Origin: a virus
Taxonomy: Duplodnaviria; Heunggongvirae; Uroviricota; Caudoviricetes
Length of the DNA stretch: 36,457 nt
Virus record (IMG/VR): IMGVR_UViG_2671180405_000008
Strand: one strand, 5' to 3'
Both the position numbers and the translations under genes were made by a program. A model generated the notes under the pieces. It saw only the letters and a list, made by a program, of their open reading frames with translations, did not search any database and had not been told where the DNA came from. This document shows positions 2,095 to 33,542 of this stretch, piece by piece. The first letter of the stretch is position 1; each line of letters starts with the position of its first letter.

Positions 2095-4008
2095 TTAAAC
2101 ACTCCCCACGTTGTACCATATTCCCCCAATCAATTTCTGAATTGGCCTTCTGGCAACAGTGTCGACAATATCATCCGCATTGCTGTTAATTGCGGCTGTT
2201 AAAACATAACCTGACGCATCGCCAAAGCCGTAGTCGCGCCATACGTTTTTATATTCAATGCTGCCAAGACGAATATCCCGAACGACATGATTATGCAGCC
2301 ATGTGCTTAACCAGTTGTTTTCCCACACTGAACCATAAATATCGCCACTAGACGCAACTTGCGCACCACTTCCCAGCGCAAATCCCCCATCTGTTTTAAA
2401 AATGAAATCACCACCACCATCTGAACCGTTATTAATATGAACACCATCACCACCGTTATCTTTCCACAAAAACATACGAATTCTTCCGTCTTCGTTGGCG
2501 AATGTAATGTGGTGGCGGTAATTACTTTTTAATCTAAAATTGCTGCCATTAGATTCAATATCTTTATAAAGATGTAATCCTAACTCATCAATATGTCCGA
2601 TGCGCGAACCATTTGAATAGAAGCTAATAATACCATCTCCATCTTGCCTAAATCCGGTGTCGTTATCTCCCAGAACAATGGAGTTTTCACCCAGTGCGTT
2701 ATCAGTAGCTCCAATAGCTAGACCTCCTTTAATTTTGGCCCCGTGGCTGACAGATATAGCACCTGTTCTCAGATTTATAGCGAATGGCCTTAATGGGCCG
2801 ATATTACCGTTTTCGCCTTGTCCTTCAGCCGTCGGAATGAAATGAAGAAAATCTTCTGAACGACGGAAAATTAGACCGAAGGTATCATTGAAAATTCGCA
2901 GCGCATTCACCGTGCCAATTTTCAGTTCTCCGGTCATTTTATCGCCGGAACGCTGAACGGCGTTACCAGCCTTGTTTACCGTTTCCTGTAAACCGAGGTA
3001 TTCGATAACGGCGGCAACGGTCGATTTCGCAAGAATATCCCGCCCGACTTTTGTCAGGGTTGCCAGGCTGGCGACATCATTCCCCGTAAAATACGGAAAC
3101 CTGTCTGCCGCAGTAGCAAGCCCCGCCAGCGCCGTCAGAGTGGCATCTTTCGGTTGCTTACCCGCAAGCGCGTTAGTCATGGTGGTCGCAAAATTCGGGT
3201 CGTTGCCCAGCGCCGCCGCCAGCTCGTTCAGTGTGTTCAGTGCATCAGGCGAAGAGTCTACAAGTGCGGCAATCGCAGCCATAACGAAAGCCGTGCTTGC
3301 GATTTGGGTATTATTCGTTCCCTGTCGCGCAGTTGGTGTTGTTGGCGTTCCGGTCAGTGCCGGGCTGTTTAATGGGGCTTTCTTGTTCGTTTCATCCATT
3401 ACTGCCTTAACGGCTTTTGGTGTCGCTGCCAGCGTTTCAGACGTGCTGTTGGTGGCGTTGCTGAGCTGGACAAGGCCTTTTGCGGTCAGCGAGGCGTCCG
3501 GGTGACGTCGTGACTGTTCATGCTCTTTCAGTTTGTCATCCACGTAATTCACTGTGGCCATCACCATGGTGTTATCCACGGTAAGCGCCACAGTGGCAGT
3601 GCTGGATACGGTCAGAATGGTGCGAAATGTTTGTGCACGTCCGGATCCTTCGGCAACGGTTGGCTTGTAACTTTCGGCAGTATTGCCTACCGCGATCAAA
3701 TCGCCGTGCTCATCAAACACACCAATTTCCCGGATCCAGAATCCGCCCGTTTCAGGAGGAATAACCAGCTCCGCAATAATGTGGTTCTGATGTGTTGCGT
3801 CCAGGGTGACGCGATTAACGGTATGTCGCCACACCTCATGCACAAGACGGGTCTGCTTACTGTCTGGCGTGGGTAAAGTACCGCCGCCGTCACCCACGGC
3901 CATATGTGTCAGGCGGACAGGTTTCCCATCTGGCGCGGTTGCCTGCGCTAATTTTTTTGCACCCGTATCGGTGATAATGGTTTTAAATTTTCGTGTTGTG
4001 GTACTCAT
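2095..4008 (-). CDS. Tail fibre protein (P2 gpH-like), constant N-terminal part 3009-4008 fused to variable C-terminal cassette 2095-2982
   Basis: 637 aa; N-terminus [26 protein letters not shown]... and [16 protein letters not shown]...[21 protein letters not shown] match P2 H from memory; ends [17 protein letters not shown]. Confidence 0.85.
2983..3008. repeat. Serine-invertase crossover site inside the tail-fibre gene (boundary between constant and variable parts)
   Basis: ttcctgtaaaccgaggtattcgataa, gix-like; encodes VIEYLGLQE at the constant/variable boundary. Confidence 0.6.
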
Positions 4009-4010
4009 GC

Positions 4011-4574
4011 TTAATCGTCCGGATAAATGGTAATGACTTCACCGTCGTAAGTTGCTGCTGCCGCGAAAATATCTCCCTGAATCTCCTGAATGATATTCAG
4101 CCCTGTCATGTGGCGGCTGACCGGGCGGGCATCAGCAATCAACCGCTCCATTTCCAGATACATTTCCTCCGTCACGCCACTGTCCAGCGTGCCAACATCA
4201 ATCTTGAATGTTCCGGGTTCGCCGTTGAACTCCCACCACTCAGACACGCGAATGAGGTATCCCAGCGGCTCAATGGCCCGTCGCAGGGCGCTGATGGTTC
4301 CTTTGTGTCGGTGTATCAGCCATGCATCACGAATCACCTGTCGCTTTGTCTCTTCCGGCCAGTTGCGATCCCAGCGGTCAACGGAAAACGCCCAGGCGAG
4401 ATAAGGCAGCAGATGCACCGGGCAGGTGTCCGGCGACCACAGCGTGTTGAGGTCTGCCGGAATGTCTGTAATGCGTGTTCCGACGGCTTCGGCACAACGC
4501 ATGAAATTGCTGGCTGATGGTGGTAACAGTGAATTACTCATTACGCCCACCTTCGCTGATGGTGAATGACTCAC
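4011..4574 (-). CDS. Baseplate assembly protein I (P2 gpI-like); true start may be the internal MSNSLLPP methionine near 4541
   Basis: Translation with LLPYLAWAFSVDRWDRNWPE motif; position between J and H. Confidence 0.8.
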   Translation of the reverse strand: MSHSPSAKVGVMSNSLLPPSASNFMRCAEAVGTRITDIPADLNTLWSPDTCPVHLLPYLAWAFSVDRWDRNWPEETKRQVIRDAWLIHRHKGTISALRRAIEPLGYLIRVSEWWEFNGEPGTFKIDVGTLDSGVTEEMYLEMERLIADARPVSRHMTGLNIIQEIQGDIFAAAATYDGEVITIYPDD

Positions 4575-5430
4575 AGCGCGCCGCCTGTATGTCGCTGATG
4601 GCCATATTCTGTGTGGGTTCGATTATCTCCACGCGTTGCACACCGTGCACATGCAGTGCGGCAGCAATGGCGGACAACGCCACGTCCTGACCGATAAGCC
4701 CCTGCTCAGCCAGCCACTTCCTGAACGACGATTCAGCCGCAGCCAGAATAGGTTCGGATTCCGGACCGGGGTAAAAGTACAGTTTTGCATTCAGCCGCCA
4801 TGTCACGATTCTGGCACTCTGTACGGTCAGGCGGTCGGCCACCGGGCGGGTATCCTCTGCATTCAGAACGGCGCGAACGGTATTAAGCAACGCCTCCGTT
4901 GCTGTGCCGTCGCCCTCAGTGGACAGGATGGAAACCGTCACATTTGCCGGAGACGGACTGATGGCCCGCGCATCGCGCACCAGACCGCTGGCGCTGCGGG
5001 CAAAATACTCGTATGCGCCTGACGGGCCTGCAACACTCAGGCCGTCATACGCCCGCTGCGCCCGCAGTCTCAGCGAGGTGTCGTTCTCCATCACCACGTC
5101 GGTGGTATCCGTTGCCGGAGTGATAACCAGGCGCTTTGTGTTCATATTGCCCGCGAGGTTGTCCAGGTCTGTTCCGGCGCTGTGGCTCAACATGCAGGCG
5201 CGTGCGGCCTCATTGACCCGCTGGCGTAACAGCATTTCACGAAACGACATGGTTTGAGCGATAACGTTCAGGGGTTCCGATTCCAGTTCCAGTGCGGCGG
5301 AGACGACTTCACGCTGTTCGGCGGGATAAGCTGCAATCATCATGGCCTTTGTGTCAGCCAGAATTGCCTCAAAGTCAGGCTCCGCGATGATGGCGGGTTC
5401 CGGTAACTGGGAAAGGTCAACGGCAGGCAT
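4534..5430 (-). CDS. Baseplate assembly protein J (P2 gpJ-like)
   Basis: 298 aa, position between W and I in conserved P2 order. Confidence 0.8.
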   Translation of the reverse strand: MPAVDLSQLPEPAIIAEPDFEAILADTKAMMIAAYPAEQREVVSAALELESEPLNVIAQTMSFREMLLRQRVNEAARACMLSHSAGTDLDNLAGNMNTKRLVITPATDTTDVVMENDTSLRLRAQRAYDGLSVAGPSGAYEYFARSASGLVRDARAISPSPANVTVSILSTEGDGTATEALLNTVRAVLNAEDTRPVADRLTVQSARIVTWRLNAKLYFYPGPESEPILAAAESSFRKWLAEQGLIGQDVALSAIAAALHVHGVQRVEIIEPTQNMAISDIQAARCESFTISEGGRNE

Positions 5431-5433
5431 GAT

Positions 5434-5784
5434 TTACTCCCTCAGCGTGATGGTTAATTCAACATTCTGCATGGTCTGCATGACAGTGCCCGACAGCGTC
5501 ACCCCGGCGTGGCCTCCTGCCTTCCAGACAACGTCGATGGCGTTCAGGGCAATGCGTGGTTCCCATCGTGTCAGTGCAATCACGGTAGCACTCATGCATT
5601 GCAGACGCGTGGTGTTATTCATGGGTTCGTCAATCAAATCAGGCACAAGGCTGCCATATTCCCGTCGCATAACCCGGCTTGCCAGCGGGGTGGTCAGGAT
5701 GTCCCTGACTGACTGTTTCAGGTGCGCCATATCGTTCAGGTTTCCCGTCCCGTCCGGGTTCATTCCTGTGTAGCGGGTTGTCAC
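5434..5784 (-). CDS. Baseplate wedge protein W (P2 gpW / GPW-gp25 family)
   Basis: 116 aa, conserved position between V and J. Confidence 0.75.
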   Translation of the reverse strand: MTTRYTGMNPDGTGNLNDMAHLKQSVRDILTTPLASRVMRREYGSLVPDLIDEPMNNTTRLQCMSATVIALTRWEPRIALNAIDVVWKAGGHAGVTLSGTVMQTMQNVELTITLRE

Positions 5785-6362
5785 TGCGGGCCTCCTGTCG
5801 AATCGCTGCCACCTTTAACGCCACCGTGCTTATGCGTATGCACTGTGATGCCGTTTGAGGTGAAATCGCCGCCGCTGTGCGTGATATTGCCGCTCATCGT
5901 TCCCCCTTTTGTGACGTCAAGCGTCGCTGTTCTCAGAAGGTCTGTGCATTCCACGACAGGCGTGTTCAGTGTCACGCTGATGGATGCCTGCAAAGTGGCC
6001 GTTTTCATGCCGCTTGCGCTCAGTGCGCCTGCGTCCGCGTCGTAGCGGAACACCGCGCCGTCCGGCGCGCTGACCACGATTTCTTTCAGGCTTTTGCCGG
6101 GTGCCGGAATGGCATCACTCCACAGGCTGCCGATTATCATGGCGGTTTCCGGGTTGCCGCCGATGCAGGCAATTGCCACCTGTTCGCCTGGTGATGGCGG
6201 AAACCACACGTTGAAGTCTCCCGCGCGCGTGGTGTTCCAGCGCAGCCAGCCTGTTTCCAGTTCGCCGCTGCGAACGCGCACGCACCAGGATTCCTCATCA
6301 ACTTCAGAGATGATCCCGGTGCGGATGATATTGCTCAGCAGTCGCATGAGTTCTGCGCTCAT
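5781..6362 (-). CDS. Baseplate spike / assembly protein V (P2 gpV-like)
   Basis: 193 aa, conserved order S-V-W-J-I-H. Confidence 0.75.
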   Translation of the reverse strand: MSAELMRLLSNIIRTGIISEVDEESWCVRVRSGELETGWLRWNTTRAGDFNVWFPPSPGEQVAIACIGGNPETAMIIGSLWSDAIPAPGKSLKEIVVSAPDGAVFRYDADAGALSASGMKTATLQASISVTLNTPVVECTDLLRTATLDVTKGGTMSGNITHSGGDFTSNGITVHTHKHGGVKGGSDSTGGPQ

Positions 6363-6994
6363 CGTACAGCCTCCGCAATCCGGCCCAGCACCGTGTTATA
6401 AATCAGGCGCTCATCTGCCTGGCTGATACCCAGCAGCTCACGTACCGGGTAATCGGTGAAAATGCCCGGCGCAACCTGATCGCGCTCACCGAACTGATGA
6501 ACGCGTGCAATACGTGCGGCCACGCCGCTGTAACCCACCGTCACACCGGAAGCATCTGCACGGGCTTTCAGGTAGCGGGCGGTGCGCAGTTTTACGAACA
6601 TGGAGACGCGCCTGGTGCTGTCCTGGTTGATGCGCCGGGTGCGTATTTCCAGAAAACGGTCGATGTCATCCCGGTAAAACGTGCGGATATTGTTTTTATC
6701 CTCATCCCACCCGGTGATGGTTCGCCCGTATTTCCCCGTGTCGTGATGCCAGTTTTTCAGCGTGCGTGCTTCGTTATTCCAGATAAAGCGAATGCGCTCC
6801 TGTATCCGGGTTACGCGGCGTCTGCGTGGTGTCCATGCGGTCCCGTCCGGCGCTTTCTGTGACCGGATACGCGCCTGCTGGGCGCGGCGTAAATCCTGTG
6901 CCAGCTTTCTGGCGATGTTATTAATGGCCTGCTGATTCAGGCTGTCGCGGATAGCCTCAAAGGTTTCATCCACGCGGGTGAATGCCTTATCCAT
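6359..6994 (-). CDS. Putative tail completion / virion morphogenesis protein (gpS-position gene)
   Basis: 211 aa ORF between R (intact in the second copy) and V; assignment is by position, length differs from P2 S. Confidence 0.5.
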   Translation of the reverse strand: MDKAFTRVDETFEAIRDSLNQQAINNIARKLAQDLRRAQQARIRSQKAPDGTAWTPRRRRVTRIQERIRFIWNNEARTLKNWHHDTGKYGRTITGWDEDKNNIRTFYRDDIDRFLEIRTRRINQDSTRRVSMFVKLRTARYLKARADASGVTVGYSGVAARIARVHQFGERDQVAPGIFTDYPVRELLGISQADERLIYNTVLGRIAEAVR

Positions 6995-7068
6995 CGCTTT
7001 CCCCCCACGTCACATCCTGGAATACATGCGACCAGTCGCCTTCGGAAGAGGGCAGGCGGGGTTTTGGC

Positions 7069-8566
7069 TCAATCTTTATAAAGATGTAATCCTAACTCAT
7101 CAATATGTCCGATGCGCGAACCATTTGAATAGAAGCTAATAATACCATCTCCATCTTGCCTAAATCCGGTGTCGTTATCTCCCAGAACAATGGAGTTTTC
7201 ACCCAGTGCGTTATCAGTAGCTCCAATAGCTAGACCTCCTTTAATTTTGGCCCCGTGGCTGACAGATATAGCACCTGTTCTCAGATTTATAGCGAATGGC
7301 CTTAATGGGCCGATATTACCGTTTTCGCCTTGTCCTTCAGCCGTCGGAATGAAATGAAGAAAATCTTCTGAACGACGGAAAATTAGACCGAAGGTATCAT
7401 TGAAAATTCGCAGCGCATTCACCGTGCCAATTTTCAGTTCTCCGGTCATTTTATCGCCGGAACGCTGAACGGCGTTACCAGCCTTGTTTACCGTTTCCTG
7501 TAAACCGAGGTATTCGATAACGGCAGCAACGGTCGATTTCGCAAGAATATCCCGCCCGACTTTTGTCAGGGTTGCCAGGCTGGCGACATCATTCCCCGTA
7601 AAATACGGAAACCTGTCTGCCGCAGTAGTAAGTCCGGCCAGCGCCGTCAGGGTGGCATCTTTCGGTTGCTTACCCGCAAGCGCGTTAGTCATGGTGGTCG
7701 CAAAATTCGGGTCGTTGCCCAGCGCCGCAGCCAGCTCGTTCAGCGTGTTCAGTGCATCAGGTGACGAATCTACAAGGGCGGCAATCGCAGCCATAACGAA
7801 AGCCGTGCTTGCGATTTGGGTATTATTCGTTCCCTGTCGCGCAGTTGGTGTTGTTGGCGTTCCGGTCAGTGCAGGACTATTTAAGGGCGCTTTCTTGTTC
7901 GTTTCACCCATTACCGCCTTAACCGCTTTTGGCGTTGCCGCCAGTGACTCGGAAGTGCTGTTGGTCGCACTGCTGAGCTGTACTATCCCCTTTTTCGTCG
8001 TGCTCGCATCCTCAAGCGCCACGGCGGATGCAATATCCTCTGCCCGTTTTGCTGCTGTCTCGGCGCGCGTTGCCGCGGATTCAGCAGCAACTTTGCTCTG
8101 AGATGCAGCCGTCGCACTGCCTGCCGCCTCTGATGCTTTCGTTGTTGCTGTCGTGGCACTACCTTTCGCTGCTGACGCTTGTCTGGTCGCCTCATCTTTT
8201 GAAGCAGACGCAGATGATGCCGATGACGCCGCTGAACTGGCTGACGATGCGGCTGCTGCCTTAGAGGAAGCAGCATTGTCTGCTGAAGTCTTTGCATTTG
8301 TTTCAGAGGTTTTTGCTGCAGAAGCAGACCTCGCTGCTGCAGTGGCTTGCTCAGTGGCTTTGCCAGCCTTCGTTGTGGCTGTTGAAGCGGATGATGCGGC
8401 GCTTTCTGCCGATTTTCCGGCGGCGGTGGCACTGGCTGAGGCCTGCCCGGCACTTGTTGACGCGGCACTGGCAGATAATGCAGCCGCTGTTTTTGAACCT
8501 GCCGCAGCTGAGGCGCTCTGTCCCGCTGCTGTTTCAGAAGACTTAGCGTTCGTCTCGGACGTTTTA
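7069..8566 (-). pseudogene. Chimeric tail-fibre fragment: Ala/Ser/Thr-rich Stf-like repeats (8566-7980) fused to a diverged H-like constant region and a variable cassette identical to 2560-2982; N-terminus truncated by the IS, C-terminus truncated at the 7070/7072 junction
   Basis: ORF 7069-8598 translation; first 11 codons (MVVSAIASTPH) lie inside the IS terminal repeat; ends HLYKD exactly where homology to copy 1 stops. Confidence 0.6.
7494..7519. repeat. Third copy of the invertase crossover site, same orientation as 2983-3008
   Basis: Identical 26-mer ttcctgtaaaccgaggtattcgataa. Confidence 0.55.
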
Positions 8567-8609
8567 TGAGGTGTACTGGCAATAGCGGACACTACCATTT
8601 GTTCTTTTT

Positions 8610-9428
8610 TTAAGCAGCCATCTGATGATATTTTTCCCTGAAGGCTGCCGGGGAGATATTCCCCAGACGAGAGTGACGACGCTGACGATTGTAGAAAATC
8701 TCAATGTATTCCCGTATTACTGAGATGGCTTCATCCCGGTTATTAAAACGATAGTGGCTCAGGCTCTCATTTTTCAGCGTTCCCCAGAAGCTTTCCATCG
8801 GAGCGTTGTCGTAACAGTTACCTTTACGCGACATTGATGTTTTCAGACCAGACTGCTCCTGTATGACCCGGTAATCGTATGCGCAGTACTGTGAACCTCG
8901 ATCAGAGTGGTGGATTAGCCCGGCAGGTGGGCGCTGGCTCCTGAGCGCCATAAACAGGGCTTTACCTGTCAGCTCTTTTGTCATGCGCTCTCCCATGGCG
9001 TAGCCGACAATTTCGCACGTATAAACATCTTTGATGCCAGCGAGGTACAACCATCCCTCCTGTGTGGCAACATACGTCAGGTCCGCCACCCAGACCTGAT
9101 TTGGTGCTGTAGGAGCGAACGTCTGGTTCAGCAGATTTGGCGCAACTGGCAGATTGTGGTTCGAGTTCGTAGTCGCTCTGAACTTGCGTTTCTGCTTACA
9201 GCGTAGCCTTAGCTCCTTACGAAGACGTGCCAGTCGGTCACGACCAACGATGATGCCATTCTCTGCCAGCTCCGTCTGGAGCCGCCGGGTTCCATATGTT
9301 TCGCGAGTGCGGATATGTGCCACCTTAATCTCCAGTTTTAGCCGCTCATCACTTTGTTTTCTGTCTGAGGGTTCATGCTGTACCCAGTTGTAATAACCGC
9401 TCCTGGATACACCAAATACCTGACACAT
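8610..9428 (-). CDS. IS3-family transposase OrfB (DDE integrase domain)
   Basis: 272 aa; HSDRGSQY and NCYDNAPMESFWGTLK motifs typical of IS3-family OrfB. Confidence 0.85.
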   Translation of the reverse strand: MCQVFGVSRSGYYNWVQHEPSDRKQSDERLKLEIKVAHIRTRETYGTRRLQTELAENGIIVGRDRLARLRKELRLRCKQKRKFRATTNSNHNLPVAPNLLNQTFAPTAPNQVWVADLTYVATQEGWLYLAGIKDVYTCEIVGYAMGERMTKELTGKALFMALRSQRPPAGLIHHSDRGSQYCAYDYRVIQEQSGLKTSMSRKGNCYDNAPMESFWGTLKNESLSHYRFNNRDEAISVIREYIEIFYNRQRRHSRLGNISPAAFREKYHQMAA

Positions 9429-9463
9429 CGCTTCAATGGGAAATTGTTGTCGCCATTGTTCGA

Positions 9464-9766
9464 TTAACGCGTATTTTTCAGCGACTCCTGTGCAAAATAC
9501 GCTGTTGCTTTTTTTAATATATCTCGCTCAAGGCGAGCTTCATTTAACGCCTTACGCAGTTGCAGAATTTCAGATTCCAGTTCAGCCACCGTGCGGGAAC
9601 CAGGAGTACCGAGCCCTTTTCTGGCGGCGGTAACCCATTGTCCTAAAGTGCCTTCAGGAAGAGATAATCGGGAAGCGCCTTCACTGATCGAAAGTTGATT
9701 TTCAAGAACCGTTCTGACAGCTTCGGCTTTGAACTCTTTAGAGTAACGTTGGGTTTTTCTGCTCAT
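9464..9766 (-). CDS. IS3-family transposase OrfA (HTH, leucine-zipper part)
   Basis: 100 aa MSRKTQRYSKEFKAEAVRTV..., recalled as IS600 OrfA. Confidence 0.85.
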   Translation of the reverse strand: MSRKTQRYSKEFKAEAVRTVLENQLSISEGASRLSLPEGTLGQWVTAARKGLGTPGSRTVAELESEILQLRKALNEARLERDILKKATAYFAQESLKNTR

Positions 9767-9827
9767 TATTAGCTCCTTCTGATGCCATTCTATTTCAGGA
9801 AGGAGTGTCCGTTAAACTCAGGCTACC

Positions 9828-11537
9828 TCACTCTGACCAGTCAGCTTCAAAGCCATAACCATCACGCGCTGAACGATAAAAAATACCGCCGTTCCTGTAA
9901 TTCACGCGGAACTGTACAGCAGGGCAGCTCCCCGTATTCATATTGAAGTGGAGGATTAATGTCGATGCGCCACCAATGTTTGCGTTATAGACCCCGCTAT
10001 TCCAGTTCCAGCCAACAGCTTTATCATTTCCGACAGTGCTTCCTGTTTGCCCTAAAGCAAATGCAGGTTGTTGATTTTTCGTGTTGTAGTCTCGTCGCCA
10101 GCCAGGAGCGTAAGCATCACCATGATTAATATAAGTGAATTGAGCGTTAGTAATTCCGCCACCGCTGGACGTGCTCGGCGTGGTAACGCGTATGGTCATT
10201 GCGCCGCGAGTGCCAATAACTTCCACCACAGCACCTGCAAGACAAATATTTCCGCAACCTGTATCTGTAATGACCTTATTATTTGCATAAGCCCATGAGC
10301 CTTTGCACATCCAGTAAGGATGGTTAAATGCTCCCTGACTCTCCAGCCACGAAATAAATTGCGCGGTTGTCCAGACCTGACTATCGCCACCAATATTCAG
10401 CCATGAGCTATATGCGCGGCAGGCACCAATATTTTTGGTGAAGGTATCTTTCCCCGGAATATCTGCGCCGTTCTGGTTTTTCTGTAATGCGCCAGAAGCC
10501 TGATTTACCGTTTCCTGTAAACCGAGGTATTCGATAACGGCAGCAACGGTCGATTTCGCAAGAATATCCCGCCCGACTTTTGTCAGGGTTGCCAGGCTGG
10601 CGACATCATTCCCCGTAAAATACGGAAACCTGTCTGCCGCAGTAGCAAGCCCCGCCAGCGCCGTCAGAGTGGCATCTTTCGGTTGCTTACCCGCAAGCGC
10701 GTTAGTCATGGTGGTCGCAAAATTCGGGTCGTTGCCCAGCGCCGCCGCCAGCTCGTTCAGTGTGTTCAGTGCATCAGGCGAAGAGTCTACAAGTGCGGCA
10801 ATCGCAGCCATAACGAAAGCCGTGCTTGCGATTTGGGTATTATTCGTTCCCTGTCGCGCAGTTGGTGTTGTTGGCGTTCCGGTCAGTGCCGGGCTGTTTA
10901 ATGGGGCTTTCTTGTTCGTTTCATCCATTACTGCCTTAACGGCTTTTGGTGTCGCTGCCAGCGTTTCAGACGTGCTGTTGGTGGCGTTGCTGAGCTGGAC
11001 AAGGCCTTTTGCGGTCAGCGAGGCGTCCGGGTGACGTCGTGACTGTTCATGCTCTTTCAGTTTGTCATCCACGTAATTCACTGTGGCCATCACCATGGTG
11101 TTATCCACGGTAAGCGCCACAGTGGCAGTGCTGGATACGGTCAGAATGGTGCGAAATGTTTGTGCACGTCCGGATCCTTCGGCAACGGTTGGCTTGTAAC
11201 TTTCGGCAGTATTGCCTACCGCGATCAAATCGCCGTGCTCATCAAACACACCAATTTCCCGGATCCAGAATCCGCCCGTTTCAGGAGGAATAACCAGCTC
11301 CGCAATAATGTGGTTCTGATGTGTTGCGTCCAGGGTGACGCGATTAACGGTATGTCGCCACACCTCATGCACAAGACGGGTCTGCTTACTGTCTGGCGTG
11401 GGTAAAGTACCGCCGCCGTCACCCACGGCCATATGTGTCAGGCGGACAGGTTTCCCATCTGGCGCGGTTGCCTGCGCTAATTTTTTTGCACCCGTATCGG
11501 TGATAATGGTTTTAAATTTTCGTGTTGTGGTACTCAT
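9828..11537 (-). CDS. Tail fibre protein H, second copy, with a different variable C-terminal cassette that is cut by the IS insertion (stop codon formed at the IS boundary)
   Basis: 569 aa; identical to copy 1 up to LGLQETVN then diverges; C-terminal ...GGIFYRSARDGYGFEADWSE matches the silent cassette at 75-851 up to the IS joint. Confidence 0.75.
   Translation of the reverse strand: MSTTTRKFKTIITDTGAKKLAQATAPDGKPVRLTHMAVGDGGGTLPTPDSKQTRLVHEVWRHTVNRVTLDATHQNHIIAELVIPPETGGFWIREIGVFDEHGDLIAVGNTAESYKPTVAEGSGRAQTFRTILTVSSTATVALTVDNTMVMATVNYVDDKLKEHEQSRRHPDASLTAKGLVQLSNATNSTSETLAATPKAVKAVMDETNKKAPLNSPALTGTPTTPTARQGTNNTQIASTAFVMAAIAALVDSSPDALNTLNELAAALGNDPNFATTMTNALAGKQPKDATLTALAGLATAADRFPYFTGNDVASLATLTKVGRDILAKSTVAAVIEYLGLQETVNQASGALQKNQNGADIPGKDTFTKNIGACRAYSSWLNIGGDSQVWTTAQFISWLESQGAFNHPYWMCKGSWAYANNKVITDTGCGNICLAGAVVEVIGTRGAMTIRVTTPSTSSGGGITNAQFTYINHGDAYAPGWRRDYNTKNQQPAFALGQTGSTVGNDKAVGWNWNSGVYNANIGGASTLILHFNMNTGSCPAVQFRVNYRNGGIFYRSARDGYGFEADWSE
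10511..10536. repeat. Fourth copy of the invertase crossover site, same orientation as 2983-3008; coincides with the left edge of the second 4.1 kb repeat
   Basis: Identical 26-mer; homology between the two blocks starts here. Confidence 0.55.
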
Positions 11538-11539
11538 GC

Positions 11540-12103
11540 TTAATCGTCCGGATAAATGGTAATGACTTCACCGTCGTAAGTTGCTGCTGCCGCGAAAATA
11601 TCTCCCTGAATCTCCTGAATGATATTCAGCCCTGTCATGTGGCGGCTGACCGGGCGGGCATCAGCAATCAACCGCTCCATTTCCAGATACATTTCCTCCG
11701 TCACGCCACTGTCCAGCGTGCCAACATCAATCTTGAATGTTCCGGGTTCGCCGTTGAACTCCCACCACTCAGACACGCGAATGAGGTATCCCAGCGGCTC
11801 AATGGCCCGTCGCAGGGCGCTGATGGTTCCTTTGTGTCGGTGTATCAGCCATGCATCACGAATCACCTGTCGCTTTGTCTCTTCCGGCCAGTTGCGATCC
11901 CAGCGGTCAACGGAAAACGCCCAGGCGAGATAAGGCAGCAGATGCACCGGGCAGGTGTCCGGCGACCACAGCGTGTTGAGGTCTGCCGGAATGTCTGTAA
12001 TGCGTGTTCCGACGGCTTCGGCACAACGCATGAAATTGCTGGCTGATGGTGGTAACAGTGAATTACTCATTACGCCCACCTTCGCTGATGGTGAATGACT
12101 CAC
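11540..12103 (-). CDS. Baseplate assembly protein I, second copy
   Basis: Protein identical to 4011-4574. Confidence 0.8.
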   Translation of the reverse strand: MSHSPSAKVGVMSNSLLPPSASNFMRCAEAVGTRITDIPADLNTLWSPDTCPVHLLPYLAWAFSVDRWDRNWPEETKRQVIRDAWLIHRHKGTISALRRAIEPLGYLIRVSEWWEFNGEPGTFKIDVGTLDSGVTEEMYLEMERLIADARPVSRHMTGLNIIQEIQGDIFAAAATYDGEVITIYPDD

Positions 12104-12959
12104 AGCGCGCCGCCTGTATGTCGCTGATGGCCATATTCTGTGTGGGTTCGATTATCTCCACGCGTTGCACACCGTGCACATGCAGTGCGGCAGCAATGGC
12201 GGACAACGCCACGTCCTGACCGATAAGCCCCTGCTCAGCCAGCCACTTCCTGAACGACGATTCAGCCGCAGCCAGAATAGGTTCGGATTCCGGACCGGGG
12301 TAAAAGTACAGTTTTGCATTCAGCCGCCATGTCACGATTCTGGCACTCTGTACGGTCAGGCGGTCGGCCACCGGGCGGGTATCCTCTGCATTCAGAACGG
12401 CGCGAACGGTATTAAGCAACGCCTCCGTTGCTGTGCCGTCGCCCTCAGTGGACAGGATGGAAACCGTCACATTTGCCGGAGACGGACTGATGGCCCGCGC
12501 ATCGCGCACCAGACCGCTGGCGCTGCGGGCAAAATACTCGTATGCGCCTGACGGGCCTGCAACACTCAGGCCGTCATACGCCCGCTGCGCCCGCAGTCTC
12601 AGCGAGGTGTCGTTCTCCATCACCACGTCGGTGGTATCCGTTGCCGGAGTGATAACCAGGCGCTTTGTGTTCATATTGCCCGCGAGGTTGTCCAGGTCTG
12701 TTCCGGCGCTGTGGCTCAACATGCAGGCGCGTGCGGCCTCATTGACCCGCTGGCGTAACAGCATTTCACGAAACGACATGGTTTGAGCGATAACGTTCAG
12801 GGGTTCCGATTCCAGTTCCAGTGCGGCGGAGACGACTTCACGCTGTTCGGCGGGATAAGCTGCAATCATCATGGCCTTTGTGTCAGCCAGAATTGCCTCA
12901 AAGTCAGGCTCCGCGATGATGGCGGGTTCCGGTAACTGGGAAAGGTCAACGGCAGGCAT
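12063..12959 (-). CDS. Baseplate assembly protein J, second copy
   Basis: Protein identical to 4534-5430. Confidence 0.8.
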   Translation of the reverse strand: MPAVDLSQLPEPAIIAEPDFEAILADTKAMMIAAYPAEQREVVSAALELESEPLNVIAQTMSFREMLLRQRVNEAARACMLSHSAGTDLDNLAGNMNTKRLVITPATDTTDVVMENDTSLRLRAQRAYDGLSVAGPSGAYEYFARSASGLVRDARAISPSPANVTVSILSTEGDGTATEALLNTVRAVLNAEDTRPVADRLTVQSARIVTWRLNAKLYFYPGPESEPILAAAESSFRKWLAEQGLIGQDVALSAIAAALHVHGVQRVEIIEPTQNMAISDIQAARCESFTISEGGRNE

Positions 12960-12962
12960 GAT

Positions 12963-13313
12963 TTACTCCCTCAGCGTGATGGTTAATTCAACATTCTGCA
13001 TGGTCTGCATGACAGTGCCCGACAGCGTCACCCCGGCGTGGCCTCCTGCCTTCCAGACAACGTCGATGGCGTTCAGGGCAATGCGTGGTTCCCATCGTGT
13101 CAGTGCAATCACGGTAGCACTCATGCATTGCAGACGCGTGGTGTTATTCATGGGTTCGTCAATCAAATCAGGCACAAGGCTGCCATATTCCCGTCGCATA
13201 ACCCGGCTTGCCAGCGGGGTGGTCAGGATGTCCCTGACTGACTGTTTCAGGTGCGCCATATCGTTCAGGTTTCCCGTCCCGTCCGGGTTCATTCCTGTGT
13301 AGCGGGTTGTCAC
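12963..13313 (-). CDS. Baseplate wedge protein W, second copy
   Basis: Protein identical to 5434-5784. Confidence 0.75.
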   Translation of the reverse strand: MTTRYTGMNPDGTGNLNDMAHLKQSVRDILTTPLASRVMRREYGSLVPDLIDEPMNNTTRLQCMSATVIALTRWEPRIALNAIDVVWKAGGHAGVTLSGTVMQTMQNVELTITLRE

Positions 13314-13891
13314 TGCGGGCCTCCTGTCGAATCGCTGCCACCTTTAACGCCACCGTGCTTATGCGTATGCACTGTGATGCCGTTTGAGGTGAAATCGCCG
13401 CCGCTGTGCGTGATATTGCCGCTCATCGTTCCCCCTTTTGTGACGTCAAGCGTCGCTGTTCTCAGAAGGTCTGTGCATTCCACGACAGGCGTGTTCAGTG
13501 TCACGCTGATGGATGCCTGCAAAGTGGCCGTTTTCATGCCGCTTGCGCTCAGTGCGCCTGCGTCCGCGTCGTAGCGGAACACCGCGCCGTCCGGCGCGCT
13601 GACCACGATTTCTTTCAGGCTTTTGCCGGGTGCCGGAATGGCATCACTCCACAGGCTGCCGATTATCATGGCGGTTTCCGGGTTGCCGCCGATGCAGGCA
13701 ATTGCCACCTGTTCGCCTGGTGATGGCGGAAACCACACGTTGAAGTCTCCCGCGCGCGTGGTGTTCCAGCGCAGCCAGCCTGTTTCCAGTTCGCCGCTGC
13801 GAACGCGCACGCACCAGGATTCCTCATCAACTTCAGAGATGATCCCGGTGCGGATGATATTGCTCAGCAGTCGCATGAGTTCTGCGCTCAT
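13310..13891 (-). CDS. Baseplate spike protein V, second copy
   Basis: Protein identical to 5781-6362. Confidence 0.75.
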   Translation of the reverse strand: MSAELMRLLSNIIRTGIISEVDEESWCVRVRSGELETGWLRWNTTRAGDFNVWFPPSPGEQVAIACIGGNPETAMIIGSLWSDAIPAPGKSLKEIVVSAPDGAVFRYDADAGALSASGMKTATLQASISVTLNTPVVECTDLLRTATLDVTKGGTMSGNITHSGGDFTSNGITVHTHKHGGVKGGSDSTGGPQ

Positions 13892-14523
13892 CGTACAGCC
13901 TCCGCAATCCGGCCCAGCACCGTGTTATAAATCAGGCGCTCATCTGCCTGGCTGATACCCAGCAGCTCACGTACCGGGTAATCGGTGAAAATGCCCGGCG
14001 CAACCTGATCGCGCTCACCGAACTGATGAACGCGTGCAATACGTGCGGCCACGCCGCTGTAACCCACCGTCACACCGGAAGCATCTGCACGGGCTTTCAG
14101 GTAGCGGGCGGTGCGCAGTTTTACGAACATGGAGACGCGCCTGGTGCTGTCCTGGTTGATGCGCCGGGTGCGTATTTCCAGAAAACGGTCGATGTCATCC
14201 CGGTAAAACGTGCGGATATTGTTTTTATCCTCATCCCACCCGGTGATGGTTCGCCCGTATTTCCCCGTGTCGTGATGCCAGTTTTTCAGCGTGCGTGCTT
14301 CGTTATTCCAGATAAAGCGAATGCGCTCCTGTATCCGGGTTACGCGGCGTCTGCGTGGTGTCCATGCGGTCCCGTCCGGCGCTTTCTGTGACCGGATACG
14401 CGCCTGCTGGGCGCGGCGTAAATCCTGTGCCAGCTTTCTGGCGATGTTATTAATGGCCTGCTGATTCAGGCTGTCGCGGATAGCCTCAAAGGTTTCATCC
14501 ACGCGGGTGAATGCCTTATCCAT
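13888..14523 (-). CDS. Putative tail completion / virion morphogenesis protein (gpS-position), second copy
   Basis: Protein identical to 6359-6994. Confidence 0.5.
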   Translation of the reverse strand: MDKAFTRVDETFEAIRDSLNQQAINNIARKLAQDLRRAQQARIRSQKAPDGTAWTPRRRRVTRIQERIRFIWNNEARTLKNWHHDTGKYGRTITGWDEDKNNIRTFYRDDIDRFLEIRTRRINQDSTRRVSMFVKLRTARYLKARADASGVTVGYSGVAARIARVHQFGERDQVAPGIFTDYPVRELLGISQADERLIYNTVLGRIAEAVR

Positions 14524-24361: not shown

Positions 24362-24673
24362 TCATTCAGGAAATAATGCCCGGATATTCCCTGCTATCTG
24401 ACTGGTTATCTGTGCGGTTGGTACTGGCTGTGGCACGGGGCGTTCTGTCCTGGTTTGTGTCACCGATAACGCCTCATCGTCAGCCCATGCAGCCAGTCGG
24501 TAAGCCTCTGCTGGATTCATTTTCAGAAGTGCCAGCCCGGCCAGAAAAGCCACGCGTTGGCCGCTTTTGCGGGCTTCTGGTGTAAGGCTGCCCAGCCAGG
24601 CGCATGCTTCGCTTTCGTTCTTGACGGCCGCAGGCTTCAGATAGAAACTTATCCGTCTGGTTGGTGTCGTCAT
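24362..24673 (-). CDS. ParR-like centromere-binding adaptor (start at internal MTTPTRR methionine)
   Basis: RRISFYLKP...RVAFLAGLALL...IRALFPE resembles plasmid R1 ParR (RRTIAFKLNP...RAALTAGLALY...LRSLFPK) from memory; directly downstream of the parM-like gene. Confidence 0.5.
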   Translation of the reverse strand: MTTPTRRISFYLKPAAVKNESEACAWLGSLTPEARKSGQRVAFLAGLALLKMNPAEAYRLAAWADDEALSVTQTRTERPVPQPVPTAQITSQIAGNIRALFPE

Positions 24674-24677
24674 TGGT

Positions 24678-25637
24678 TTACTCCTTGTCCATTGCGTACA
24701 GCCCATTAACCAGAGCAAACTGTGGCACCCCGTCCGCGATGAAAGTCGCATTAACTCCGCAGGCTTCGCGGATAGCGGGTGCCACAATCTCCGCCCCTCC
24801 ACCGACAACCATCACCCGCCCGTAACCCGAAAAACCCGCCAGCGCGCGGATCACGCGTTGTTTCAGTGTTTCTTCCTTTTCACGAATAACCGCCATCAGG
24901 CTGGCGTAATGCGCGTCATTGTGGATGTGCTGGCGCAGCCAGGCTTCATCATGGCGATGTTCGATAATGGTATTGGCGATGTGGTGACTGGTGCGCATAC
25001 CGTTAGTGGCCATCACCGACAGTACGGCATCGGCCATCAGAGAAACGCCTACGTGTGGATCGCAAAACACCTGGCTGATACCTGCCAGTTGCCCCTGAAC
25101 CTTTGCCACATCCAGCGTGGTTCCGCCCAAATCCACAATCAGCAGGGATTCAAACGGACTCATGTCAGCCAGTGCCTTAAAGCCAGCCGGAATGGATTCA
25201 GGCATAACCCGCACGTTACGGATAGTGAATGCTTCGCCGTTCTGGTACTCCACCGGGCGCATAACGTTCGCTTTTTTGCGGTTGATGTTGGCCATGTCCG
25301 GCTGTGCGTTTGTGTCGAAATACTCGCTCAGTGGCAGGGTGACAACCACATCCACCTCCTGTGGCGTGATGCCTGATTTGACCAGCGCGTGATGAATGGC
25401 AATGACATTTACATCGCTGTACTGGTATTGCGTGTCGGTTGTCTGGACAAAGCGATCGCTGACCGGATCAAAACCATAGCGCACGCCATCAAGCATGTAG
25501 TTCGCGGGCTGCATGCCACCGAACGGCGCAGACCATTCCGACTTGAAGCTGTTCGGGCTGATGGCGTTGCGGCGTTCGCCGTTCTCAGTCCATGCCAGCT
25601 TGATGTTGGTGGAGCCGTCGTCGATACAAATTTTCAT
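24678..25637 (-). CDS. ParM/StbA-like actin-family segregation ATPase
   Basis: N-terminus MKICIDDGSTNIKLAW, phosphate-2 motif VDLGGTTLDV, adenosine motif VVGGGAEIV; close to R1 ParM. Confidence 0.8.
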   Translation of the reverse strand: MKICIDDGSTNIKLAWTENGERRNAISPNSFKSEWSAPFGGMQPANYMLDGVRYGFDPVSDRFVQTTDTQYQYSDVNVIAIHHALVKSGITPQEVDVVVTLPLSEYFDTNAQPDMANINRKKANVMRPVEYQNGEAFTIRNVRVMPESIPAGFKALADMSPFESLLIVDLGGTTLDVAKVQGQLAGISQVFCDPHVGVSLMADAVLSVMATNGMRTSHHIANTIIEHRHDEAWLRQHIHNDAHYASLMAVIREKEETLKQRVIRALAGFSGYGRVMVVGGGAEIVAPAIREACGVNATFIADGVPQFALVNGLYAMDKE

Positions 25638-30970: not shown

Positions 30971-31282
30971 ATGTCAATAGAGATATCAAAGAAGCTAAAA
31001 GCAATTCGAGAATCTGAGGGGCTTAGTCAGGCAAAGTTCGCGGATTCAATAGGTATTGCGGTTGGTACGGTTAAGCAATACGAGACTGGTATTCGAGGTG
31101 TGGGAACGGAGGTTTTACTGAAAATCACAATGCACCCGGAATTTAAAAAATACACTACGTGGTTGATGAGTAACGAAACAAATGAGGCTGCTGGGCAGAT
31201 CAGTCCTTCTCTCTCCCCTGATGGGCCAGAAAACACATCGTCTTCTCAAAAATCCCGCAAGACTGGCACACAGCCCGGCTAA
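30971..31282 (+). CDS. Immunity repressor C (P2 C-like); ORF track start at 30869 is probably too far upstream
   Basis: MSIEISKKLKAIRESEGLSQAKFADSIG...MHPEFKKYTTWLMSNETNEAAGQISPSLS resembles P2 C from memory. Confidence 0.75.
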   Translation: MSIEISKKLKAIRESEGLSQAKFADSIGIAVGTVKQYETGIRGVGTEVLLKITMHPEFKKYTTWLMSNETNEAAGQISPSLSPDGPENTSSSQKSRKTGTQPG

Positions 31283-31331: not shown

Positions 31332-32309
31332 ATGAGCATAAAATCAATTCCGGGAGGGTATCTTCTTGACATGCGTCCTGAGGGGCGTAAAGGCAAACGC
31401 ATTCGCAAAAAATTTAAAACGAAATCGGATGCAGTTTTATATGAGCGGTGGGTGCTGGCGCAACAGCATAACAATGAGTGGAAAGGAAACTCCATTGATC
31501 GCCGTCCGCTGTCAGTGCTTATTGACTTGTGGTGGAAATACCACGGCCAGCTAATGAAGTCAGGGCATAACACGCGCCTTAAATTGCTGCGCTTGAGTGA
31601 GGCAATGGATGACCCGTGCGTGCATAAACTTAATACAACGATGCTCACCGAGCTACGTGTGTCCAGGATAGAGCAGGGGATACAGCCCAGCACCATAAAT
31701 CGAGAGATTGGGGCGTTAAGCGCGATGTTTACCGCACTCATCTCATCCGGCCATTTTCTTAACGATAACCCCGTTCAAGGCCTTAAAGGAATGAAGGTTA
31801 ACGAGCGTGAAATGGGATATCTGAGTAAGTCTGAATGTGTTCAGTTGCTGGATGCACTGGCTGAAAATCCCGATGAACGGCTGGCCGTCGAAATCCTTCT
31901 GTCGACCGGGGCGCGATGGGGCGAGGTAGCGGCACTGGAGCAGCGCCGTGTTCTTCATTGTCGAATCACTTTTTCAAAAACGAAGAACAGCAAAAACCGT
32001 ACCGTTCCTATTTCTGAAAGCCTGTTTGAAAAGATCAAAAAACGGGGCGGGAAACTGGTGTTTCCGACGCTGGATTATTCATTGGTTCGCGATGTCATCA
32101 AAACGGTCGCACCTGATGTTCCTGACGGCCAGGCTGTTCATGCGCTGCGCCACACCTTCGCCAGTCATTTCATGATGAACGGCGGCAATATTCTGACGCT
32201 CCAGAAAATTCTGGGGCACGCAAAGATTCAGACAACGATGATTTATGCCCATCTTGCGCCGGATTACTTGCAGGATGCGGTGAGGTTTAATCCCTTGGGA
32301 GGAATGTAA
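31332..32309 (+). CDS. int: Tyrosine integrase (P2 Int-like); start at MSIKSIPGGY
   Basis: LSTGARWGEVAAL, HALRHTFASHFMMNGGNILTLQKILGH and MIYAHLAPDYLQDAV blocks match P2 Int closely. Confidence 0.9.
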   Translation: MSIKSIPGGYLLDMRPEGRKGKRIRKKFKTKSDAVLYERWVLAQQHNNEWKGNSIDRRPLSVLIDLWWKYHGQLMKSGHNTRLKLLRLSEAMDDPCVHKLNTTMLTELRVSRIEQGIQPSTINREIGALSAMFTALISSGHFLNDNPVQGLKGMKVNEREMGYLSKSECVQLLDALAENPDERLAVEILLSTGARWGEVAALEQRRVLHCRITFSKTKNSKNRTVPISESLFEKIKKRGGKLVFPTLDYSLVRDVIKTVAPDVPDGQAVHALRHTFASHFMMNGGNILTLQKILGHAKIQTTMIYAHLAPDYLQDAVRFNPLGGM

Positions 32310-32311
32310 CT

Positions 32312-32812
32312 ATGGAAATAAAAAAACCTACAAAAAAAGAGTTATATGACTATTTACTATCGAAATATATAGAAGATAAATGCAAAGAAGAAGCTGATGA
32401 AATCAATAAGAAGTCGATGAGTCGTGTCAAAAAACATAAAGAGCGGCTGATGGAGATTACGCCAGAAATCTTCTTCCGTTTCTTGTCTGAGAAGGGGGTC
32501 TCCAGTGTCTGCCCTTCATGTGGATCGTCGCGATTATCTGTTCCAGAAAGTATGGATCTTTGCTGGGATAAAAATAAGAAACCAGAAAATTTTAACAATC
32601 TACCCCTGGAGGAACAGAGTGAGTTAATTAAAGAGAACATAAAGCATTATGTATCTTATGCTTTTTTGGGTGATGTTAAGAGCATACCTGATATGCGCAA
32701 AACTTATTACACGCTGCATTGCCTGAATTGTGGTTACCTGAGCCTTTATCGTACGTCTGCGGTGCTGAAGTGGTTGGAGAAAGACAAAGCGCAGGATGGT
32801 GATAATGGGTAA
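32312..32812 (+). CDS. Cargo gene 1: zinc-ribbon-containing protein of unknown function
   Basis: 166 aa; CPSCG and CLNCG motifs; strongly AT-rich; GGAGGA Shine-Dalgarno 8 bp upstream; start 3 bp after the int stop. Confidence 0.5.
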   Translation: MEIKKPTKKELYDYLLSKYIEDKCKEEADEINKKSMSRVKKHKERLMEITPEIFFRFLSEKGVSSVCPSCGSSRLSVPESMDLCWDKNKKPENFNNLPLEEQSELIKENIKHYVSYAFLGDVKSIPDMRKTYYTLHCLNCGYLSLYRTSAVLKWLEKDKAQDGDNG

Positions 32813-33350
32813 TGTAGCAAGAAATCTTTTCGGTAATTCAGCAGGTAGTGTGTCGCATTCTGAGCGTGATGTGCTTTATCATGGTGGCGATGGCGGCAGT
32901 AGTGGAGGCGGAATGTCAGATAAACTTGAAAGGCGAATTGAGCGGCTCGAAGGTGATTTATCGCTAACAAGAAACGACCTTGCGACGCTTGCTGAACGCA
33001 CTACAAACCTCTCAACTAAAGCCGATGTTGGTGAGGTGAAAGGTGAACTCAAAGCAGACATAGCACATCTGAAAGGTGATCTTGAATGCGATATTGCGAA
33101 TCTGAAAGGTGAGCTTAAATCTGATACAGCTAACCTGAAAGAGCAGCTCAAATCAGACATTAACAGCCTGAAGGGTGAGCTTACCGAAGCGATGGATAAA
33201 CGCTTTGACAAGATTATGGATGAGATGAATCGGCGGTTTGACAAGGTTGATGATAATACGAAGTGGCGTTGGAGTGGCATTATTGTGCCAGTGTGCACAA
33301 CCATTTTCACAGCGGCGGTTGCTGTATTTGTTGCTAAATTTGTTGGCTGA
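32796..33350 (+). CDS. Cargo gene 2: coiled-coil protein with Gly-rich linker, tandem 11-residue repeats and a C-terminal transmembrane anchor
   Basis: 184 aa; repeats LKGDLECDIAN / LKGELKSDTAN / LKEQLKSDINS; C-terminal WSGIIVPVCTTIFTAAVAVFVAKFVG; overlaps gene 1 by 17 bp. Confidence 0.5.
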   Translation: MVIMGNVARNLFGNSAGSVSHSERDVLYHGGDGGSSGGGMSDKLERRIERLEGDLSLTRNDLATLAERTTNLSTKADVGEVKGELKADIAHLKGDLECDIANLKGELKSDTANLKEQLKSDINSLKGELTEAMDKRFDKIMDEMNRRFDKVDDNTKWRWSGIIVPVCTTIFTAAVAVFVAKFVG

Positions 33351-33459
33351 TGATCCACAAATTGACCACATCTCTGTTATTTGTTGTGGTTGGCTGTGTT
33401 TTTGTGTGTCTGTAAGTCTTTGATAATTACCTAACTTATTGATTTTTGTTTGTGTTTAT

Positions 33460-33482
33460 GGCCGCTCTGCGGCCTTTTTTCT
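33460..33482 (+). terminator. Rho-independent terminator
   Basis: ggccgctctgcggcc stem-loop followed by tttttt. Confidence 0.5.
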
Positions 33483-33542
33483 TTTCACTGTCGAAGAGTC
33501 ACCGTAAAATCAACGCCATGACACTTCAGCAGAACGGATACC

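Follow-up and report, generated by a model that had tools for sequence, protein, structure and literature searches.

Members of the DUF1640/CCDC90 family (PF07798) are membrane proteins in which a beta-layer motif, [aliphatic]-A-T-K-[polar]-[DE], stands where the stalk begins (Hartmann et al., PMC4786415). Yeast members are located on the matrix side in mitochondria (PMC7519068). The mitochondrial proteins (MCUR1, CCDC90B and Put6/7) act as membrane scaffolds, in roles that continue to be debated. A variable hotspot between cI and int has been described in P2-related Vibrio phages (Rousset et al., PMC9122126). The DNA analyzed here is one stretch of 36,457 nucleotides (nt), hereafter the window (IMG/VR virus record IMGVR_UViG_2671180405_000008), which carries a P2-like prophage of an E. 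coli host, integrated between ihfA and btuC. Two overlapping genes directly after the integrase gene int (window 32312-33350) are the subject of this analysis: gene 1, for a zinc-ribbon-like protein, and gene 2, for a tail-anchored coiled-coil protein that resembles the DUF1640/CCDC90 family.

The pair is an accessory ('moron') cassette of P2/HP1/186-like temperate phages, and gene 1 together with the N-terminal tail of gene 2 was found to evolve and recombine as one unit. A phage-exclusion device is a plausible function for such a cassette, and a defence role is put forward on that footing, tentatively and as something short of probable. As candidate exclusion cargo the pair has no counterpart in PADLOC or in the searched literature.

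Genes 1 and 2 and their relatives

The following features of the pair were located in the window. Lengths are given in amino acids (aa), and E denotes the expect value of a match.

32298-32303, plus strand: ribosome-binding site GGAGGA of gene 1, within the last int codons, read from the sequence
32312-32812, plus strand: gene 1, 166 aa, a PHROG 4293 family member (E 8.1e-23, residues 39-163), predicted to be soluble and zinc-ribbon-like (Cys4)
32805-33350, plus strand: gene 2 in its long form, 181 aa, predicted tail-anchored DUF1640/CCDC90-like coiled coil (181-aa homologues begin MGN; PHROG 9415, E 6.5e-15)
32805-32882, plus strand: variable N-terminal tail of gene 2, residues 1-26, predicted to be disordered (AlphaFold2 (AF2) predicted local distance difference test score (pLDDT) below 50 over residues 1-31)
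32883-32912, plus strand: glycine run (Gly-run) GGDGGSSGGG, a flexible linker by its sequence, which also encodes a Shine-Dalgarno-like (SD-like) GGAGG at 32904-32908
32913-32915, plus strand: internal ATG, Met37, the RefSeq start of a 145-aa form
33009-33026, plus strand: beta-layer motif LSTKAD, residues 69-74, fitting the consensus given above
33036-33266, plus strand: seven 11-residue (hendecad) repeats, residues 78-154, from a Tandem Repeats Finder (TRF) period of 33 and the protein register
33270-33335, plus strand: C-terminal transmembrane (TM) anchor, residues 156-177, followed by 4 residues (Kyte-Doolittle maximum 2.43, residues 159-177)

Loci with related genes were compiled, and a gene 1 homologue followed by an open reading frame (ORF) for a tail-anchored coiled coil was present in 13 of the 13 distinct loci inspected. 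A Gly/Asp-run was found in 11 of 12 compiled pairs, type C being the pair without one; in the thirteenth locus (L040) gene 2 is split by a frameshift. The settings in which the pair was found, besides that of the window, were the following.

Salmonella: at the ihfA/btuC site, as in the window
E. coli: type A2
E. coli: types B and B'
E. coli: type C, proteins of 127 and 99 aa, without a Gly-run
Klebsiella: P2-like element
186-like prophage: at another host site
IMG/VR contig
Providencia: adjoining ogr
HP1/P2-like prophages: ~100 nt from the opposite prophage end, with their own hairpin terminators, at two host sites
Pam3/E217-like myophage (L038): a moron among tail and baseplate genes

At the junctions the two genes overlap by 8 nt or by 1 nt (ATGA type), or gene 2 starts directly or 1-2 nt after the gene 1 stop. 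Read from these sequences, genes 1 and 2 are a genuine pair with predicted translational coupling. Conservation of the pair ranges from 97% down to ~25% identity over phages of Escherichia, Salmonella, Klebsiella, Providencia and Morganella, and gene 1 of types B and C was homologous to the family at an hhalign probability of 98.6-98.9%. The gene 1 family is small: an exhaustive profile search gave 90 clusters among 1.84 billion representative proteins, the named members coming from Escherichia, Shigella, Salmonella, Providencia and Morganella, with one also in a Klebsiella element. The survey of neighbouring genes placed the pair after int in E. coli, Salmonella, Klebsiella and 186-like prophages, and also in other positions. 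A role in integration or excision was considered and rejected, because the position varies and the pair also occurs far from int, in a tail gene cluster and at the opposite prophage end.

A preliminary description of the window, made from its letters alone, had placed two overlapping ORFs after int, the first of them behind a GGAGGA ribosome-binding site, and both observations stand. The gap between int and gene 1, given there as 3 bp, is in fact 2 nt, from the int TAA stop at 32307-32309 to the gene 1 ATG at 32312. Gene 1 does encode 166 aa with two CxxC pairs, the knuckles being CPSC at residues 67-70 (nt 32510-32521) and CLNC at residues 137-140 (nt 32720-32731). C67, C70, C137, C140, G141 and W154 are invariant across 44 aligned family members, and the four invariant cysteines would fit a Cys4 zinc site. 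The AF2 model of gene 1 had a mean pLDDT of 82.8. Its predicted fold gave no match in PDB or BFVD, sequence searches of PDB returned nothing, and Pfam, NCBIfam and PADLOC gave nothing above zinc-ribbon noise. The family proteins contain no hydrophobic segment. Most of them are acidic, with a pI of 4.6-6.3 (that of the window protein is 8.1), and for this reason they are probably binders of protein rather than of DNA. The ratio of nonsynonymous to synonymous differences per site (pN/pS) was ~0.4 for gene 1.

The start of gene 2 is most likely, by comparison with homologous sequences, the ATG at 32805, which gives 181 aa and overlaps the gene 1 stop by 8 nt, and not position 32796, from which a protein of 184 aa had been read. 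The identical 8-nt overlap was called in Salmonella, in Providencia and in E. coli locus L034, and the gene callers of other collections give 181-aa proteins beginning MGN. In types B and in Klebsiella a GTG stands directly after the gene 1 stop, behind GGGAGGG or GGGG. The long form is probably real, on the strength of the homologue starts, the kept overlap, the synonymous variation of the Gly-run codons between types, and the tail motifs common to distant homologues (RDV..Y...HGGDGG and GIT.L).

Downstream of the long start, nine loci (eight distinct pairs) have ATG as the first codon past the Gly-run, L038 and L039 have GTG, and Met stands there in type B' (L043). Every pair with a Gly-run has a start-capable codon after it, with an SD-like string of GGAGG type upstream. 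Since a Gly-run yields G-rich strings by itself, two gene 2 isoforms from two starts are proposed as a possible reading and nothing firmer. The RefSeq/PGAP model of the DUF1640 gene (L001 6664-7101) is 145 aa from the internal ATG, and the type B gene 1 is unannotated in some genomes (L002). Because the internal start is used and the type B gene 1 is uncalled, the RefSeq annotation hides both the N-terminal extension and the pairing, and the 145-aa model probably omits a functional N-terminal extension of gene 2.

The earlier statement that neither protein could be assigned to a named family is wrong for gene 2, which is DUF1640/CCDC90-like by RefSeq, where it is named a 'DUF1640 domain-containing' or 'CCDC90 family' protein; gene 1 matches PHROG 4293. 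Against PF07798 gene 2 scored 24.1 bits in the 184-aa form and 25.1 bits in the 145-aa form (E 1.8e-5 to 3.7e-5), missing the gathering cutoff of 33.5, and near-identical database clusters (P0019) carry precomputed PF07798 matches. Besides this sub-cutoff CCDC90-like match, NCBIfam, PADLOC and Pfam returned only coiled-coil noise for gene 2. The protein is most suitably regarded as a divergent DUF1640/CCDC90 relative.

In the beta-layer motif T71, K72 and D74 are invariant in 16 sequences, and relatives P0042 and P0046 read LATKAD. The 33-bp DNA repeat reported in the preliminary description was recovered by TRF (3.2 copies, 33037-33141), but its count of at least three repeats has to be raised to the seven seen at the protein level. 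Homologue lengths step by exactly 11 aa, through 112, 123, 134, 145 and 156 in the short form and 148, 159, 170, 181 and 192 in the long form, so the repeat copy number differs between strains. The Gly-rich linker (GGDGGSSGGG) and the single C-terminal TM helix (residues 156-177) were both borne out, and a TM helix lies at the C-terminus in 12 of 12 homologues, with 1-8 residues beyond it. The AlphaFold monomer consists of a disordered region (1-36), a helix (37-69), a break (70-71), a second helix (72-146) and a TM helix (150-180). The stalk is predicted to face the cytoplasm: gene 2 lacks a signal peptide and carries its anchor at the very C-terminus, a reducing compartment is required for a Cys4 partner, and the yeast members face the matrix.

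A protein of this build could also serve as a membrane scaffold for lysogenic conversion or for the phage life cycle, in which the stalk would tether gene 1 and its target to the inner membrane and modulate a host process, induction or lysis timing. Several observations accord with a scaffold: the resemblance to the DUF1640/CCDC90 scaffold proteins MCUR1, CCDC90B and Put6/7, the tether-like combination of variable stalk length, flexible Gly linker and putative docking peptide, the mostly acidic gene 1 proteins as probable protein binders, and the solo DUF1640 genes that adjoin replication genes in phages SC1 and APSE-1. Weak PHROG matches of gene 2 to a holin family (phrog_689, E 0.004) and an XhlA-type 'hemolysin' family (phrog_1193, E 0.023) lie in the same direction, but gene 2 is located after int and not among the late lysis genes, so that the pair is outside the lysis cassette. 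The pair is moreover missing from most P2-like phages, including P2, and is thus dispensable for the life cycle, and the cassette swapping and alternative slot cargo described below form a pattern more characteristic of conflict genes than of genes for phage housekeeping. A scaffold role was judged fairly unlikely.

Cassette exchange and the int-attP slot

The window was compared with E. coli locus L034 by sliding identity, and the region of exchange was delimited as follows.

32291-32890, plus strand: swap cassette, comprising gene 1 and the first ~28 codons of gene 2

Within the cassette the two sequences are 53-85% identical, against 92-100% over the C repressor gene and int (97-100% over int alone) and 95-100% over the gene 2 stalk and anchor. 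A three-way alignment gave the identical right-hand breakpoint for types B, in the Gly-run at ~32890. Synonymous differences per site (pS) amounted to 0.61 in gene 1 versus 0.05 in int and 0.05 in the gene 2 stalk, with pN/pS of 0.4-0.5 at saturated pS, and the contrast in pS reflects allelic replacement from a diverged pool, not fast point mutation. The gene 2 tail co-varies with gene 1 type. Although fused to the stalk, the tail is exchanged together with gene 1, and its simplest reading is therefore as a putative docking site for gene 1.

Co-variation of N-tail and gene 1 is also expected of a cognate inhibitor pair, and a toxin-antitoxin or addiction system was therefore weighed, with gene 2 as a membrane-damaging toxin, gene 1 as the coupled upstream antitoxin, stabilization of the prophage as the outcome and defence as a secondary effect. 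Such a system would accord with two small genes that overlap or abut, the antitoxin preceding the toxin, and with a small single-TM protein as potential toxin; addiction genes do occur in phages of this kind, as the hok/gef gene at the other end of the prophage shows. The persistence of frameshifted alleles argues in the other direction. A 1-nt deletion at window 32462 shifts the frame of gene 1 after residue 50, before the zinc ribbon (compare L044 3001-3315), and these alleles were found in at least 14 assemblies with the downstream gene 2 intact and 100% identical. An unneutralized toxin should not persist in this state, although lost coupling may lower gene 2 expression. No toxin or antitoxin family was matched in Pfam, NCBIfam or PADLOC, and solo DUF1640 proteins occur in phages with no partner. 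Addiction was regarded as improbable for the pair.

Gene 2 is followed by the attP arm of the phage, which was used to survey the interval between int and attP.

33351-33459, plus strand: phage attP arm, 110 bp, from gene 2 to the att core; 94-98% identical in ~264 further E. coli genomes with other slot content

The arm was found in ~301 of 5426 complete E. coli genomes, and the slot contents counted were these.

Pair type A: 23 genomes
Pair type B: 14 genomes
Pair type C: 17 genomes
Unrelated 131-aa ORF: 158 genomes

As the content differs between strains, the int-to-attP interval is a variable cargo slot. The window-type gene 2 stalk (types A and B) was present in 37 of the 5426 genomes and any pair type in ~55. 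The 131-aa slot ORF (WP_000416308.1; L041 3109-3504, E. coli O104:H4 2011C-3493) had no Pfam or PADLOC match. In a 186-like prophage extra cargo lies between the pair and the host junction, encoding a 594-aa protein in one strain and a 160-aa membrane-like protein and a 210-aa protein in another (L036 6056-7840; L037 5886-7075).

Rarity at this level (37/5426, or ~55 for any type) would also suit decaying or neutral ORFs that hitch-hike without current function, as would a gene 1 frameshifted in one lineage and two proteins free of known domains. Neutral ORFs are hard to reconcile with conservation to ~25% identity in the phages of five genera with four cysteines invariant, with pN/pS of 0.4-0.5 at saturated pS, and with a gene 2 architecture and coupling kept in every locus. 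Very little credence was given to this explanation.

Prophage setting and proposed function

The surroundings of the pair were annotated as follows.

30971-31282, plus strand: C-type immunity repressor, HTH_3 (Pfam HTH_3 E 1.1e-9; RefSeq: helix-turn-helix regulator)
31332-32309, plus strand: P2-type tyrosine integrase (Pfam Int_N E 1.5e-28, Phage_integrase E 1e-19; RefSeq phage integrase with identical boundaries)
33460-33484, plus strand: attR core, also the ihfA terminator hairpin and T-run (terminator scan)

Genes 1 and 2 are inside the prophage, with int (31332-32309) on one side and the attP arm on the other; the host genes beyond the module are btuC, btuE, btuD and nlpC. E. coli O26 RM8426 has a near-identical locus, and there the other end of the prophage adjoins ihfA. 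The 25-bp sequence at window 33460-33484, GGCCGCTCTGCGGCCTTTTTTCTTT, was assigned as the att core because an exact repeat (25/25 identical) adjoins ihfA at attL (NZ_CP028116). A sub-threshold Rfam match to the enterobacterial small RNA STnc540 extends over the att core and the btuC leader (window 33419-33542; 22 bits against a gathering threshold of 38, E 0.087) and is probably due to chance. The attL side of the related prophage (L004 7822-10159, E. coli O26 RM8426) holds further accessory cargo: a gene for a PIN-domain protein of 500 aa, a hok/gef toxin gene and ogr.

The module is AT-rich, as the preliminary description had it, with a GC content of 42.1% (gene 1 38.5%) versus 53.2% for the prophage and 52% for host DNA; 1.8% of equal-length prophage windows have a GC content this low. 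Its claim that the P2 backbone has no counterpart agrees with tblastn searches, which gave no match for either protein in P2 and close phage isolates. A megablast of the module and a tblastn of gene 1 against 50,697 phage records gave no match. An accessory cargo outside the P2 backbone is the supported assignment of the gene pair.

The C repressor presumably heads a lysogenic operon. A strong promoter-like site on the minus strand at 30977-30948, divergent from C, is probably Pe, and a scan of the window did not identify a Pc promoter. A consensus scan gave no terminator-like site in the intergenic gaps from C through int and gene 1 to gene 2. The only stems flagged were weak, with 3 GC pairs, one within int (32055-32073) and one within the gene 2 end that codes for the TM helix (33309-33325), and the first strong GC-rich terminator beyond the gene 2 stop was the att-core hairpin. 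Genes 1 and 2 are in line with C and int, as had been proposed, and, since they share the strand, follow int after 2 nt and are joined by gaps free of terminator-like sites, their sequence is compatible with predicted expression in the lysogen.

Elsewhere in the window, ~7.5 kb of baseplate and tail-fibre genes occur twice (2095-14523), the repeats lying 7529 nt apart (3782/11311 and 4409/11938). Repeats of 300 nt are located at 2953, 7465 and 10482, with tail-fibre-like ORFs of 637, 509 and 569 aa. Either a genuine duplication, with alternative fibres, or an error of assembly could account for these repeats.

If the pair is a phage-exclusion device, as tentatively preferred here, it could operate in the following way. 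The cassette would be placed for expression from the C-int lysogenic transcript. Gene 2 would form a membrane-anchored coiled-coil stalk toward the cytoplasm, probably a trimer as other DUF1640 proteins are, with a length that depends on how many 11-residue repeats it has. The flexible Gly-run at the stalk tip would bear a peptide tail that docks on the Cys4 protein of gene 1. Gene 1 and the tail would make up the specificity part, as suggested by their evolving and recombining as one unit, and the stalk and anchor the constant part. Gene 1 would recognize a product of the infecting phage near the inner membrane, and altered binding between gene 1 and the tail would let the anchored stalks reorganize and disturb the membrane, which would either abort the infection or keep the phage genome from entering. 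The internal start after the Gly-run may give a tail-less isoform that tunes the switch.

A conflict-type cassette fits the prophage-only distribution, the moron behaviour, the position in the lysogenic unit, the pairing of a membrane part that stays constant with a soluble part that is exchanged, and the competing cargo. A more detailed version, a membrane-tethered phage sensor, was considered rather unlikely in all its particulars: a trimeric stalk of hendecad-tuned length would hold three exchangeable zinc-ribbon subunits on Gly tethers beneath the inner membrane, the isoform ratio would set the numbers of capped and uncapped stalks, and a phage product would trigger membrane disruption or a block of entry.

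A number of results weigh against an exclusion device. Searches of PADLOC-DB v2 matched gene 1 only to DUF3800_VII (E 0.005) and gene 2 only to LmuB, LeoBC and ZorA, over stretches of coiled coil (E 4e-5 to 1e-3; the best, to LmuB and ZorA, at 4e-5 to 1e-4, amount to noise), and the proteins of types B and C scored no better than the window pair. Neither protein contains a nuclease, NTPase or other enzymatic domain, and no example was found in a non-prophage defence island. The persistence of frameshifted gene 1 beside an intact gene 2 in at least 14 assemblies indicates that the pair is not strongly selected everywhere. Solo DUF1640 proteins in the lytic-cycle regions of other phages (SC1 gp26, APSE P47) indicate that the stalk can serve another phage function and is a more general phage building block. 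Nei-Gojobori pN/pS on the short N-tail drew on too few sites to prove its coding status. The literature searched and the DefensePredictor supplements contained no description of the pair and no report of protection. The probability that remains belongs to functions outside the readings set out here.

Should the pair exclude phages, it would be a system without an enzymatic domain, in which specificity resides in a swappable zinc-ribbon and peptide cassette and the effector is a tail-anchored coiled coil. The membrane-tethered sensor, if true, would for the first time assign a function to a DUF1640 protein of bacteria or phages. Whatever the function, the pair would open the prokaryotic and phage members of DUF1640/CCDC90 to experiment for the first time.

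Comparison with known systems

Gene 2 shares with the DUF1640/CCDC90 proteins (PF07798: human MCUR1 and CCDC90B, yeast Put6/Put7) a coiled-coil stalk that opens with the beta-layer motif and a single C-terminal TM helix. It differs from them in having a disordered tail and a Gly-run with an internal start instead of a folded head domain, in its obligatory zinc-ribbon partner gene, in being encoded by a prophage, and in scoring below the Pfam gathering cutoff. The solo DUF1640 proteins of Liberibacter phage SC1 (gp26) and Hamiltonella phage APSE-1 (P47) resemble gene 2 in the motif (there ATKAD), in tandem 11-residue repeats (VRTELKQDIAN, four copies, and VRKDLSAEIAD, six copies) and in a C-terminal TM helix. 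Unlike gene 2, they are without Gly-run, N-terminal docking tail or a gene 1 neighbour, and their genes are found among replication or early genes instead of next to int and attP.

The comparison with lambda rexA-rexB, made in the preliminary description, holds for position and fails for homology. The genes rexA-rexB (with cI), glo of Vibrio phage K139 and those of the cI-int hotspot in K139-like phages resemble the pair as accessory genes in a repressor/integrase unit with a membrane and a soluble component. The pair has no sequence or fold similarity to them, no Pfam, PHROG or PADLOC match indicated RexA/RexB homology, and the slot is int-to-attP, not cI-to-int. RexB is a polytopic membrane protein, whereas gene 2 is single-pass and tail-anchored, with one TM helix. 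The lambda S105/S107 holin-antiholin is a dual-start membrane protein whose extension is 2 residues. Gene 2 is alike in that two in-frame starts, the internal one behind an SD-like GGAGG, could give long and short membrane proteins of differing activity; it differs in an extension of 36 residues with putative partner binding and in lying outside the lysis cassette.

In the window the interval between Q and A (24362-25637, minus strand) encodes a plasmid-partition-like pair, a ParM/StbA actin-like ATPase of 318 aa (StbA_N E 2e-81) and a Plasmid_stab_B protein (E 5e-23), with no PADLOC match. The P2 old/tin hotspot between Q and A (Rousset et al. 2022, PMC9122126) and the int-attP slot are alike in phage group, in being fixed slots and in carrying alternative cargo from strain to strain. 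The two are distinct, and no validated system in PADLOC matches the pair described here; if the pair excludes phages, the int-to-attP interval would be a further cargo slot of P2-like phages besides old/tin.

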